Shown in pieces: positions 19,654 to 22,919 of a stretch of DNA of 64,000 nucleotides; the first letter of the stretch is position 1; every line of letters begins with the position of its first letter. Where the stretch lies: assembly GCA_963765775.1 (NCBI GenBank), contig CAVXXQ010000007.1, positions 57,769 to 121,768 on the forward strand, read 5' to 3'. This DNA is from an uncultured Alphaproteobacteria bacterium (GTDB taxonomy: Bacteria; Pseudomonadota; Alphaproteobacteria; Sphingomonadales; Sphingomonadaceae). A program made the translations under genes and the position numbers. The notes beneath the pieces are model-generated. The model had not been told where the DNA came from. It saw only the letters and a program-made list of their open reading frames with translations, and made no database searches.

Positions 19654-19944
19654 TCAGCAGCGAAGATCGACAATGTAGTCGGCAATCGCGCTGATGGTCG
19701 CCTGCGCGCGCGGCATCGCCGAAGGATGGGGGCCCAATCCCATGTGTTCCGCTTCAACCAGAACGAGGTAGTTGGCCGCCGCCACAGGGTTTTTACCGTC
19801 CCAAAGATGCGATGCAATGTGCGTGAGATAGCGATCATATTCGTCGTCGCAGTCATCACGCACCGCCCGGAGACCGATAGGGTCCCAGTGCGTCCAGCCA
19901 ATGTCCCTCAGTCGATTAAGGTCGAAAGTCGGGGGCGAAGTCAC
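19654..19944 (-). CDS. Hypothetical 96-aa protein with WDPIG..DEYD motif (DUF1871-like)
   Basis: C-terminal part of track ORF 19654..20340; GTG at 19944 overlaps the repressor stop (GTGA); LRDIGWTHWDPIG..DDEYDRYL. Confidence 0.7.
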   Translation of the reverse strand: MTSPPTFDLNRLRDIGWTHWDPIGLRAVRDDCDDEYDRYLTHIASHLWDGKNPVAAANYLVLVEAEHMGLGPHPSAMPRAQATISAIADYIVDLRC

Positions 19945-20633
19945 ACCCGCCCCCCCTTCCACACAACCCGGCCGATAATCTCGACCTCGTCCGCCGCCAC
20001 CTCCACCGGGGGGTAGGCGAAGTTCTGCGACAATAGCGCCACCCGCCCCGCCCCGGCGCTTGCGACGCGCTTCACCATCAATGTCTCGCCTAGGCGCACC
20101 ACGTGGATGCCGTCGCGGAATGCGCGAGGGCTGCGGTCGATCAGTATCTCGTCGCCGTCGTTGAGCAGCGGCTCCATCGAATCCCCCTCGACCCGGATGG
20201 CTGACAGGCTGGCGCGGGCGAGGCCTTGCTCCTCCAGCCAGCGGCGCGAGAAGCGGAAGGTGTCGAAGGCCTCCTCGCCGCCCGCGATGCGCCCCGGCCC
20301 CGCCGAGGCGCCAAGGTCGAGCCGCGGCACGTCCACCCACTCGCCCGATTCGCGCTGCCTGAGGGGTTTTACGTAGGAATTTTCCTGCGCATCGCGCAAC
20401 TCCTCCTCCCCCACCCCGAAGAACCGCGCCAGCGTCGCGCGGTCCTGTTCCTCGAGCTTGCGGGGTGAGCCTTTGCGAATGAATTGCTGGAGATAGCTCG
20501 CATTGCGGCCGAGCAGCTCGGAGAGAGCTGCGAGGCTTACCCCCCGCTCTTGCGACAATTCGAGCAGCCGCGCGCGGGGTCCAGCGACCATTTTGCGGGG
20601 CGACTTACGAGGGGTTTGTACGATTTCCAGCAT
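19941..20633 (-). CDS. CI/LexA-like repressor: HTH plus S24 autopeptidase
   Basis: HTH (SLAALSELLGRNASYLQQFIRKG), Ala-Gly site in LGASAGPG, catalytic Ser in GDSMEP, Lys in MVKRV; start may be ATG 20591. Confidence 0.92.
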   Translation of the reverse strand: MLEIVQTPRKSPRKMVAGPRARLLELSQERGVSLAALSELLGRNASYLQQFIRKGSPRKLEEQDRATLARFFGVGEEELRDAQENSYVKPLRQRESGEWVDVPRLDLGASAGPGRIAGGEEAFDTFRFSRRWLEEQGLARASLSAIRVEGDSMEPLLNDGDEILIDRSPRAFRDGIHVVRLGETLMVKRVASAGAGRVALLSQNFAYPPVEVAADEVEIIGRVVWKGGRV

Positions 20634-20639
20634 GCAAAT

Positions 20640-20676
20640 ATCCTACACGAAGGATTTTTCCTAGACAAGTAGGAAA
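20640..20676. promoter_or_regulatory. Putative operator array in the divergent intergenic region
   Basis: Alternating half-sites TCCTA (20641), AAGGA (20650), TCCTA (20659), TAGGA (20670); perfect IR TTTCCTA-N6-TAGGAAA at 20657-20676. Confidence 0.65.
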
Positions 20677-20758
20677 TCGCATGAAACAAAAAGGGAACGC
20701 CGAGCTGATTCGCCGGGCGGAAACAATCATCTAGATCAGCAAAACAGGGACGCAAACC

Positions 20759-20962
20759 ATGCTGCTACGGACCATCGAGACCTTCATGCGCGAGCATGCC
20801 ATGCCCGCCACCAAGTTCGGGCGGCTCGCCGCTCACGACCCGCGCTTCGTGCTCGACCTGCGCATGGGGCGCACCCCGCGCCGCGACACCGAACTGCGCA
20901 CCCGCGCGTGGATGCAGGGCTACGCCGATGGCGCGTCCGCCGAAATGAGGGAGATGGCCTGA
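20759..20962 (+). CDS. Cro-like small HTH protein (67 aa)
   Basis: Helical pattern LLRTIETFMREH-MPATKFGRLAA-DPRFVLDLRMG; divergent from the S24 repressor. Confidence 0.75.
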   Translation: MLLRTIETFMREHAMPATKFGRLAAHDPRFVLDLRMGRTPRRDTELRTRAWMQGYADGASAEMREMA

Positions 20963-21378
20963 TGCTCACCGAAAGCCTTCGCGATCCGTTCGCCCACATG
21001 TTCGCCGATCTTGACCCGATCGAGCTCAAGTCCGCCCCCCGTCCCTCCGCCGCCCTGCGCCCCCGCCGCACGCTTGGCGACAGGGTACGCGCGGCGTTGA
21101 TGGGGCTGACCAGCGGCTCGGGCACGGTCCTCGTTCACAGCGAGACAACGTGGTCCTCCATCACCTTTTCCGGAACGCGCCACGAGGTGGTGCTGGAATT
21201 CTGCGGTCCTGACGCGGTCGCGGCGGGCGAGGAGCTGATCGAGCGGCTGCCCGATCACGAATTCGCCCTGCCCGGTCAGCTGGTTGCCGATGCGACGATC
21301 AGCGCGGTCGACCACCGCTTTGGCGCGATGGAGCGGCTGGAGGTGACGGCGGTGCTGTTGCTGCTGGAGGATGGCTGA
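20962..21378 (+). CDS. Hypothetical protein (138 aa), tail-terminator/DUF3168-like motif pattern
   Basis: ATG 20962 overlaps the Cro-like stop (TGATG); WSSITFSGTRHEVVL..LPDHEFALPGQLVAD..LLLLED. Confidence 0.75.
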   Translation: MLTESLRDPFAHMFADLDPIELKSAPRPSAALRPRRTLGDRVRAALMGLTSGSGTVLVHSETTWSSITFSGTRHEVVLEFCGPDAVAAGEELIERLPDHEFALPGQLVADATISAVDHRFGAMERLEVTAVLLLLEDG

Positions 21379-21390
21379 TTGTCATTTCCA

Positions 21391-21475
21391 CGTCTTCCCG
21401 GACTTGATCCGGGATCCCGCTTACTTTTGGCCGACGAAAAGGTAGCGGGGCCCCGGCTCGGGGGCCGGGGAGACG
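21391..21475. repeat. REP-like inverted repeat (type C), degenerate
   Basis: CGTCTTCCCGGACTTGATCCGGGATCCCGC ... GCGGGGCCCCGGCTCGGGGGCCGGGGAGACG between convergent genes. Confidence 0.75.
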
Positions 21476-21482
21476 AAAGTGG

Positions 21483-22919
21483 CTATGTCCGCCGGATCAC
21501 CAGATTCCGGATCTCGCTCATGTCCTCCATTGCAAAGCGGATCCCCTCGCGGCCGAGGCCCGAATCCTTGACCCCGCCATAGGGCATGTTGTCGACGCGG
21601 TAGCTCGGCACGTCGTTGATCACGACGCCGCCGACATCGAGCCGGTCCCAGGCGTCGAACATCTGGAACAGGTCGCGGGTGAAGATGCCCGCCTGAAGGC
21701 CGAACTTCGAATTGTTCACCTCCTCCAGCGCCTCATCGAATTGGGTGAAGCGTTGCAGGATGGCGAGCGGGCCGAAGGCTTCCTCGTTCTTCGCCTTGGC
21801 GCCGTCTGGCACATTCTCGAGCAGGGTCGCCTCCAGCATATTGCCGCGGCTGAGCCCGCCCCCGCACAGCAGGGTCGCGCCGGATTCCACCGCCTCGTCG
21901 ATCCAGCCCTTCAGCCGCTTGGCTTCGCCGTCCGAGATCATCGGGCCGATGAAGGTGTCGCGGTCCTTGGGGTCGCCTGCGACCAGCTTGCCCGCGCGCT
22001 CCACCAGCATCGCCTTGAAAGCATCGTAGACGTCGGCGTGGATCAGGATGCGCTGCACCCCGATGCATGACTGGCCCGACTGGTAGAAGGCGCCGAAGAT
22101 GACGCGTTCCAGCGCGTCGGCCAGATCGGCATCCTTGTCGACGATCACCGCCGCATTGCCGCCGAGTTCGAGCACGACCTTCTTCTTGCCCGCCTTGGCC
22201 TTCAGATCCCAGCCCACCCCGGGCGAGCCAGTGAAGCTGAGCAGCTTCAACCGCTCGTCCTGCGTGAACATATCCGCGCCTTCGCGGTGCGCGGGAAGGA
22301 TGCTGAAGGCGCCCTCAGGCAGAATGTCGCATTCGGCCAGCACCTCGCCCATAATGATCGCGCCCAGCGGCGTCTTGGAGGCGGGCTTCATGACGAAGGG
22401 GCAGCCCATCGCGATGGCAGGCGCGATCTTGTGCGCGGCGAGGTTCAGCGGGAAGTTGAACGGGCTGATGAAGCTGCACGGGCCGATGGGGACGCGCTTC
22501 CACATGCCCTGATAGCCCTTGGCGCGCGGGGAAATGTCGAGCGGCTGGACCTCGCCGTAGTTGCGCACCGCTTCTTCGGCGGCGATGCGGAAAGTGTCGA
22601 TCAACCGGCTGACCTCGCCCTCGCTATCCTTGATCGGCTTGCCCGCCTCGACACACAGGGCGTAGGCGAGCTCGTCTGCGCGTTCCTTGAAGCGCCGGAC
22701 GCAGTGCATCAGCACGTCCTGCTTCTCGTAGGACGCAAGCCGCGCCATCGGTTCGGCCGCGCGGACGGCGCCTGCGATGGCCTCCTCGATCACATCGGGC
22801 GTCGCCATCGCAGTGCGGAAGGCGACCTCGCCGGTGTATTTGTCGGTCACCTCAAGATCGGTGTTGGGCTGCACCGCCTTGTTATTGAGGTAGAGCGGGT
22901 AGACAGAATTGAGCTTCAC
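21483..22919 (-). CDS. Aldehyde dehydrogenase family protein
   Basis: SPFNFPLN, MKPA, FTGS, LELGGN, GQSCI catalytic Cys, EEAFGP, GLQAGIFT. Confidence 0.95.
   Translation of the reverse strand: MKLNSVYPLYLNNKAVQPNTDLEVTDKYTGEVAFRTAMATPDVIEEAIAGAVRAAEPMARLASYEKQDVLMHCVRRFKERADELAYALCVEAGKPIKDSEGEVSRLIDTFRIAAEEAVRNYGEVQPLDISPRAKGYQGMWKRVPIGPCSFISPFNFPLNLAAHKIAPAIAMGCPFVMKPASKTPLGAIIMGEVLAECDILPEGAFSILPAHREGADMFTQDERLKLLSFTGSPGVGWDLKAKAGKKKVVLELGGNAAVIVDKDADLADALERVIFGAFYQSGQSCIGVQRILIHADVYDAFKAMLVERAGKLVAGDPKDRDTFIGPMISDGEAKRLKGWIDEAVESGATLLCGGGLSRGNMLEATLLENVPDGAKAKNEEAFGPLAILQRFTQFDEALEEVNNSKFGLQAGIFTRDLFQMFDAWDRLDVGGVVINDVPSYRVDNMPYGGVKDSGLGREGIRFAMEDMSEIRNLVIRRT

Follow-up and report, generated by a model that had tools for sequence, protein, structure and literature searches.

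The window analysed here is a stretch of 64,000 nucleotides (nt) from a sphingomonad genome assembly (GCA_963765775.1, contig CAVXXQ010000007.1, positions 57,769 to 121,768, forward strand). The subject is the open reading frame (ORF) at 20962–21378, whose 138-amino-acid (aa) product we call P0001, and which an earlier inspection of the letters alone (hereafter the sequence-only reading) had taken for a stand-alone phage tail terminator under an inducible switch. It belongs to a cassette of three genes, comprising a self-cleaving S24 repressor (P0003), a divergent gene for a Cro-like helix-turn-helix (HTH) protein (P0002) and the terminator paralogue itself. The features of the cassette, in window coordinates, are as follows.

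19941–20633, minus strand: CI/LexA-type self-cleaving repressor P0003, 230 aa, XRE-type HTH plus Peptidase_S24, divergent from the output operon
20640–20676, no strand: candidate operator region, palindrome ATCCTACACGAAGGAT (20640–20655) and core TCCTAGACAAGTAGGA (20659–20674) within TTTCCTA-N6-TAGGAAA
20684–20698, no strand: degenerate alphaproteobacterial LexA-type box AAAC-N7-GAAC, one mismatch
20707–20711, no strand: GANTC site, here GATTC, inside TGATTCGC, downstream of the operator and ahead of the Cro-like gene
20759–20962, plus strand: Cro-like small HTH protein P0002, 67 aa, first gene of the output operon
20962–21378, plus strand: P0001, 138 aa, very probably a diverged stand-alone DUF3168/tail-terminator paralogue

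The ORF at 20962–21378 is a real gene. It begins with ATG at 20962 and ends with TGA at 21376–21378; its start codon overlaps the stop of the upstream 67-aa ORF by 1 nt (TGATG), and a GGGAG Shine-Dalgarno sequence lies 8 nt 5′ of the start. The three strings quoted in the sequence-only reading, ETTWSSITFSGTRHEVVLEF, AAGEELIERLPDHEFALPGQLVADATI and LEVTAVLLLLED, are all present in its translation. Relatives of P0001 fill 1141 clusters of a protein database clustered at 90% identity, and number 482 representatives at 50% identity. Across their alignment W64 and G71 are invariant and S66, F69, R73, H74, F80, G82, F101, V108 and L133 nearly so, while residues 1–37 are variable and unstructured. 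The AlphaFold model built on this alignment (predicted local distance difference test score, pLDDT, 91.9) has the core topology alpha-beta-beta-alpha-beta-beta, with a helix at 38–49, strands at 55–65 and 70–81, a second helix at 83–98 and strands at 106–119 and 125–136. The family core is acidic (median isoelectric point, pI, 4.9). The ratio of nonsynonymous to synonymous substitution rates (dN/dS) is 0.11–0.33 for the P0001 gene and approximately 0.1–0.4 for all three cassette genes, indicating purifying selection. Some public records of family members (proteins P0023 and P0043) carry the label 'transaldolase', which is an annotation error.

Ancestry of P0001

Profile searches at the level of single families did not recognise P0001. 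No match was obtained by hmmscan against Pfam (E ≤ 1), NCBIfam, PHROGs or PADLOC, and none of 100 diverse family members matched the DUF3168 model PF11367 (gathering score 24.5 bits) at E ≤ 0.1. BLASTP of P0001 against the DUF3168 protein (g8) of its own genome returned nothing, and a profile search of the PDB with the P0001-family alignment (A1) returned only noise, the best being MtrB at E = 0.04.

The predicted structure was more informative. The sequence-only reading had suggested AlphaFold and Foldseek as a check, and the top PDB fold match of the model was 6tba_4A (E = 1.9e-4, template modelling (TM) score ∼0.5), followed by Listeria antigen B, lambda gpU and the neck or cap terminators of NF5, monocin and SaPI1. 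A profile search with g8 of the gene transfer agent (GTA) identified 6tba_4A as 'Tail terminator protein Rcc01690' at 1.2e-30, and SPP1 gp17 at 1e-19; the fold of P0001 is therefore closest to the terminator of RcGTA, the Rhodobacter capsulatus GTA. In the BFVD database, the best matches were a 'Tail completion protein' and a 'DUF3168 domain-containing protein' (TM 0.5–0.64). Foldseek matches to collagenase domains were rejected as uninformative, being partial and sub-domain in extent, with target-normalised TM-scores of 0.11–0.18.

Profile-profile alignment with hhalign joined A1 to a set of 25 alphaproteobacterial g8/DUF3168 proteins (A2) with 72% probability (P = 3.4e-5, 68 columns), compared with P = 0.24 for the reversed target and P = 0.011 for the best of 30 column shuffles. 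The register places W64...G71 of P0001 on the W-x-T-K-x3-G of GTA g8, helix on helix, and the L-P-G-x-L-V strand of the family on the l-l-g-x-lv of g8. A bridge between the two was provided by eight cassette genes that occupy the same slot in sister families of the same order. All eight of these loci pass PF11367 (28.7–76.9 bits, best E 1.8e-21), and as a set they align to A1 with 97.1% probability (E = 7.6e-11) and to g8 with 99.7% (E = 5.9e-27) over 134 columns, the full length.

Taken together, three independent lines (the fold matches, the A1–g8 alignment and the bridge sequences) identify P0001 as a diverged DUF3168 protein, and put the homology on firmer ground than expected. P0001 thus very probably descends, with strong divergence, from a tail terminator of phage type (DUF3168/Tail_completion_gp17), and has become fixed in sphingomonad chromosomes as the sole output of a domesticated CI/Cro-type switch. 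The order of elements proposed in the sequence-only reading held for the W-x6-G hairpin, the following helix and the L-P-G strand, all in register with g8. The alignment stops before the last strand, so the proposed ending in ED cannot be compared with g8, and it is common only to the sister-family cassette genes. Relative to full-length DUF3168 proteins, P0001 lacks some 15–20 residues with the P-x5-PY segment between the first helix and the first strand, and the family has invariant residues of its own (R73-H74, LPDHEF and LVADA). Loss of the stopper-binding N-terminal helix was considered and found unsupported, as a helix resembling alpha-1 of g8 remains (RVRAALMGL against LRAALIAWL).

Control of the cassette

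P0003 matches Pfam Peptidase_S24 (1.8e-19) and phrog_4 'transcriptional repressor' (1e-37), with a weak match to HTH_31. In 51 homologues, conservation reaches at least 96% at each of three elements: the candidate Ala-Gly cleavage site ASAG(P)G, the serine of GDSM and the lysine of VKR. It was rejected as the LexA of the cell, scoring 26 bits against TIGR00498 where the true lexA on contig C5 scores 169 bits. P0002 belongs to a very basic family (median pI 11.2). Its AlphaFold model (pLDDT 88) consists of four helices and was matched by Foldseek to HipB, SinR, P22 c2 and 434 repressor (TM 0.60–0.65, root-mean-square deviation ∼2 Å). A homologue of P0002 is found in Synechococcus phage MinM1 (ON981384.1) as an unannotated 74-aa ORF (L071:3983-4207, plus strand) divergent from an S24-like gene, an arrangement that marks P0002 and P0003 as a regulatory pair of phage type. 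The deposited MinM1 annotation places minus-strand 'hypothetical' genes over this ORF.

The 16-bp core of the operator, TCCTAGACAAGTAGGA, was found unchanged in 37 of 50 related loci, and 45 of them keep it with two mismatches or fewer. P0003 is inferred to bind it. As the core occurs only once in the 3.18-Mb genome, the repressor seems to control only its own cassette, and a remote regulon, such as the GTA cluster, was rejected on the same ground. Downstream of the operator, an exact GAAC-N7-GAAC or GTTC-N7-GTTC was present at the equivalent place in 12/50 loci (L005, L008, L009, L022, L028, L031, L039, L040, L043, L045, L046 and L051), compared with 0.4% in shuffles, and a LexA-type box with at most one mismatch in 23/50, the window included. 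The lexA gene of this genome itself has GTTC-N7-GTTC 71 nt upstream. Repression of the operon seems to be double, exerted by LexA as well as by the cassette repressor. A GANTC site, mostly CGANTCG, precedes the start codon on the downstream side of the operator in 47 of the 50 loci (28% in shuffles); going by established Caulobacter biology, it may subject the operon to CcrM methylation or to cell-cycle control of the GcrA type.

The intact S24 motifs, the Cro-like HTH protein, the kept operator and the LexA boxes make induction by DNA damage well supported by sequence, and the inducible switch of the sequence-only reading is borne out at that level.

Distribution and inheritance

The trio is found in 51/51 examined loci of the bacterial family, the S24 gene itself being detected in 49/51; the two output genes typically overlap by 4–11 nt, compared with 1 nt in the window. 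Of 151 high-quality genomes from the family, 138 have the terminator paralogue as an intact single copy free of internal stops. A class-wide sample contained it in only 3 of 301 genomes, all from this family. Close relatives keep synteny with aldehyde dehydrogenase, 2-hydroxyacid dehydrogenase and cysS, and some distant relatives with the metallo-beta-lactamase (MBL), MAPEG, rpmF and plsX genes, which indicates vertical inheritance.

In other families of the same order, weaker matches to A1 were obtained in 14/62 genomes. The terminator gene is divergent from an S24 repressor at each of the eight sister-family loci, and no structural genes were found within 3 kb on either side of them. In the sister families a gene of 130–190 aa with a conserved C-terminal HTH-like motif stands between the S24 and terminator genes (L090:3476-4012, minus strand; L088:2272-2679, plus strand; L092:3497-3886, minus strand; L086:3454-4032, minus strand). 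This first gene replaces the Cro-like gene, except that L086 has both. It matches no Pfam or PHROGs family.

In the window, the cassette is surrounded by plsX, rpmF, a MAPEG protein, an MBL-fold hydrolase, aldehyde dehydrogenase and cysS. These are housekeeping surroundings rather than a prophage; integrase, replication, lysis and structural genes are absent. The cassette adjoins phage-type regulators and P0001 matches no characterised family, both of which would suit a functionless remnant of an ancient prophage. A functionless remnant is hardly credible given the intact gene in so many genomes, a dN/dS of 0.11–0.33, and invariant residues and a near-invariant operator across the order.

Downstream of P0001, the operon may end at the following element, in a 104-bp gap before the convergent aldehyde dehydrogenase gene.

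21397–21413, no strand: hairpin CCCGGACTTGATCCGGG resembling repetitive extragenic palindromic (REP) elements, possible operon end

The hairpin has 10 copies in the genome, counting both orientations, and is probably a REP-like element. A 67-aa ORF that covers it (21379–21582) is probably spurious. Simple promoter and terminator scans of 20550–21520 found nothing, including no canonical intrinsic terminator.

Relation to the gene transfer agent

The sequence-only reading had also raised the possibility that P0001 is an accessory GTA part encoded away from the main cluster. An RcGTA-like cluster is present in the same genome (G000:C6:757740-768608), on a different contig from the cassette, with genes for terminase (g1), portal, capsid, connector, DUF3168 g8, a Phage_tail_2 tube, a short tape measure and g13. 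Its own g8, at 762389–762778, adjoins the tube gene and scores 47.4 bits against PF11367. The Pfam model GTA_TIM (PF13547) was found in no genome of the bacterial family, including those with clear GTA clusters, and g13 (TIGR02218) was therefore used as the GTA hallmark.

By this measure 112/151 genomes have a GTA, with 32 genomes carrying the cassette and no g13 and 6 carrying g13 and no cassette. The association between the two is weak (odds ratio 3.9, P = 0.04). The GTA capsid is missing as well in 15 of 16 checked genomes with the cassette and without g13, one of which is complete and comes from the genus of the window. The cassette lies 9–32 kb from g13 in nine genomes, spanning seven genera (G341:C3, G430:C88, G416:C1, G439:C2, G353:C3, G359:C3, G360:C2, G437:C1 and G414:C3), and never inside the GTA cluster. 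Such proximity is far commoner than expected for a cassette placed at random on a 3-Mb chromosome, in a comparison that ignores phylogenetic kinship, and it may be old synteny. At one such locus (L074, G416:C1:1372000-1391999) the GTA cluster looks decayed, with the terminase and a portal fragment abutting g12–g13 and the capsid and tail genes between them gone.

SOS and LexA affect RcGTA production. An additional terminator, completing or limiting the tails of GTAs during the SOS (DNA-damage) response, would agree with this, with the RcGTA g8 terminator being the closest solved structure, and with the g13 association and proximity described above. However, the GTA cluster has its own g8, six genomes maintain a GTA without the cassette, the operator is absent at the GTA cluster, and the cassette is kept in at least 15 GTA-free genomes. 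An accessory or regulatory GTA part is accordingly improbable, and the proposal of the sequence-only reading was not borne out. P0001 is not a structural tail part, nor is it a building block of the cell's own GTA.

Copies in phages and prophages

A tblastn search of 50,697 GenBank phage records with P0001 gave no match. Family members were present in three IMG/VR contigs and in a prophage of genome G407, 55–69% identical to P0001 or to each other. The copies lie in temperate HK97-like phages and in the prophage, at the following positions.

L076:7716-8336: phage or prophage copy
L077:8019-8393: phage or prophage copy
L085:5977-6330: phage or prophage copy
L080:9990-10337: phage or prophage copy

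Their layout is fixed: up199, up65, the P0001-like copy, Mu-Gam (PF07352), HNH, small terminase subunit (TerS), large terminase subunit (TerL), portal and capsid, with the copy overlapping the start of gam by 4 nt in all four. Neither up199 nor up65 matched a family in Pfam or PHROGs; up199 has weak profile similarity to the first gene of the sister-family cassettes (hhalign 69%, P = 4.5e-5). In both IMG/VR contigs tested (L076 and L077), a true PF11367 terminator lies ∼9.5 kb downstream in the tail module. The phage copy is thus an extra, non-structural paralogue, apparently expressed with early or DNA-handling genes. Maximum-likelihood analysis groups two of the phage copies with the window copy and that of a congener (support 100/98), and this nesting within a host-genus clade indicates gene flow between host and phage lineages.

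The phage copies also bear on whether P0001 might be a component of the switch, a co- or anti-repressor that binds P0003 or P0002, in the way that DdrR serves UmuDAb, and has no further target. Regulation by the cassette appears to be confined to itself, and all three genes evolve at similar rates. There is a precedent in the divergent pair UmuDAb/DdrR (PMC11332147). We nevertheless give this explanation little chance, as no S24 or Cro-like partner accompanies the phage copies, either within 8 kb or elsewhere on the contig, and the sister families exchange the Cro-like gene for another first gene and keep the terminator gene.

Proposed role of P0001

In the explanation that we favour, with a probability of roughly 0.4 for the whole, a diverged terminator released by a DNA-damage switch interferes with the assembly of phage tails. 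The S24 repressor would sit on the near-invariant operator between the divergent genes and, upon DNA damage, would cut itself when triggered by activated RecA (RecA*), thereby releasing the operon; judging from the motifs and sites described above, this regulatory part is likely. The Cro-like gene and the terminator paralogue would then be co-translated from one mRNA. In many lineages the LexA box would provide a second SOS lock, and the GANTC site may tie expression to the cell cycle. Once released, P0001 would form a putative soluble terminator-like oligomer that could bind proteins of the tail tube or neck, whether these come from an induced prophage, a superinfecting siphophage or a GTA. 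Bound P0001 would block tail completion or head-tail joining, with an outcome similar to that of the prophage protein Tab. Tail-assembly interference itself is a tentative proposal, at clearly less than even odds, argued from the retained terminator features and the Tab precedent.

Several observations weigh against this explanation. The TM-scores of the P0001 model to solved terminators are only 0.45–0.55, and the LexA box of the window carries a mismatch. PADLOC-DB 2.0 finds nothing for P0001 or P0002, and for P0003 only noise-level matches (capH and mad1). Near-universal, single-copy, syntenic inheritance across the order is unusual for an anti-phage factor facing fast-evolving phage partners. 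The phage copies, in a lytic operon and overlapping gam, point equally to DNA-end or recombination biology. Order-wide vertical conservation and the gam coupling fit a decoy only moderately well.

A role in the DNA-damage response fits the order-wide conservation, the SOS and cell-cycle wiring and the gam coupling better than tail interference does. The terminator fold would in this case have been reused within the SOS response, for instance in modulating RecA or a nuclease such as AddAB/RecBCD, or in the handling of DNA ends, where it might serve as an acidic ring or a mimic, and borrowed by phages beside Gam. Besides vertical conservation, the LexA boxes, GANTC sites and dedicated S24 repressor are in keeping with such an effector, as is an operator that is unique in the genome and so makes P0001 the whole output of the switch. 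The four phage and prophage copies stand in the constant order from up199 to TerS beside Mu Gam, and the nesting of phage copies inside the host-genus clade is what a host gene captured by phages would show. The acidic core and the retention of the cassette in GTA-free genomes agree with it as well. However, no catalytic or known binding motif was found in P0001, and its most conserved residues, W64, T68 and G71, are also conserved in true terminators, which suggests retained ancestral contacts rather than a new site. The adjacency to gam may also reflect operon layout only. On balance, we regard a DNA-damage effector as nearly as probable as tail-assembly interference. A broader formulation, in which an order-wide exaptation of the terminator fold, possibly as a ring, is freed by a bistable CI/Cro-plus-LexA switch to act on DNA ends, repair or nuclease machinery rather than virions, with phages having recaptured it together with Gam, is unlikely.

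Whether by tail interference, as we favour, or by action on DNA, the cassette is unusual among domesticated phage genes, which are generally recognised as whole machines (GTAs, tailocins and type VI secretion systems) or as repressors (FddR). Here, a bacterial order seems to have retained one neck protein on its own, under purifying selection and controlled by a DNA-damage switch, even without a GTA, and phages have extra copies of it. Among 8.4 million papers and preprints, DUF3168 was mentioned in only seven, none of them on such a cassette or its function. P0001 represents a new branch of DUF3168, invisible to Pfam, and its setting is one from which no terminator has been reported. Its case illustrates that a Pfam-invisible family can be traced to its origin through bridge sequences in orthologous slots, and the 16-bp operator, LexA box and GANTC site form a compact regulatory module. 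If P0001 does block tail completion, it would represent an assembly-interference defence conserved order-wide; a role in DNA repair would instead put the tail-tube/terminator fold to a new use.

Comparison with known systems

With the PF11367 terminators (RcGTA g8/Rcc01690, PDB 6TBA; SPP1 gp17; lambda gpU), P0001 shares the helix-hairpin-helix-hairpin fold, the size class and the acidity, as well as the W-x6-G hairpin motif and the L-x-(I/L)-P-G-x-L-V strand in register, with homology established through the bridge sequences. In contrast to them, it fails the Pfam model, is without the P-x5-PY segment and has its own invariant residues. Those terminators are encoded between the head-tail connector and tube genes, whereas the P0001 gene lies outside any structural module, behind a repressor and flanked by S24, Cro-like and housekeeping genes, and it coexists with a true terminator both in this genome and in phages.

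The CI-Cro switches of lambda, P22 and 434 resemble the cassette in having an S24 self-cleaving repressor that faces a small HTH gene across shared palindromic operators, a pair also present in MinM1. The cassette differs in being without a prophage and in its housekeeping flanks (plsX, rpmF, aldehyde dehydrogenase and cysS). Chromosomal control by an S24 repressor after DNA damage is also the basis of pyocin regulation by PrtR/PrtN. In PrtR/PrtN and in UmuDAb/DdrR of Acinetobacter (PMC11332147 for the latter), chromosomal S24 repressors link DNA damage to phage-derived or SOS functions via a small adjacent gene, as the cassette is predicted to do; the outputs are different, and the operator here lies at the cassette only, with no remote regulon evident.

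Tab, from Pseudomonas prophages, is expressed constitutively and targets the tape measure protein; it blocks the assembly of tails without saving the infected cell (PMC10884400). As a small phage-derived protein whose action leaves no infectious progeny of other phages to be released, it is the model for the proposed action of P0001. For P0001, an assembly block is proposed by analogy. The closest parallel for the switch is FddR of Francisella, a co-opted phage S24 repressor that controls itself and divergent genes after DNA damage (PMC13148647). In both systems a domesticated S24 repressor is kept across a taxon, its own promoter contains a palindromic operator, and the divergent unit is self-contained and linked to DNA damage, here by prediction. 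In the present case, which is known from sequence, the host also has a normal LexA, and the output of the switch is a lone terminator paralogue behind a Cro-like gene.

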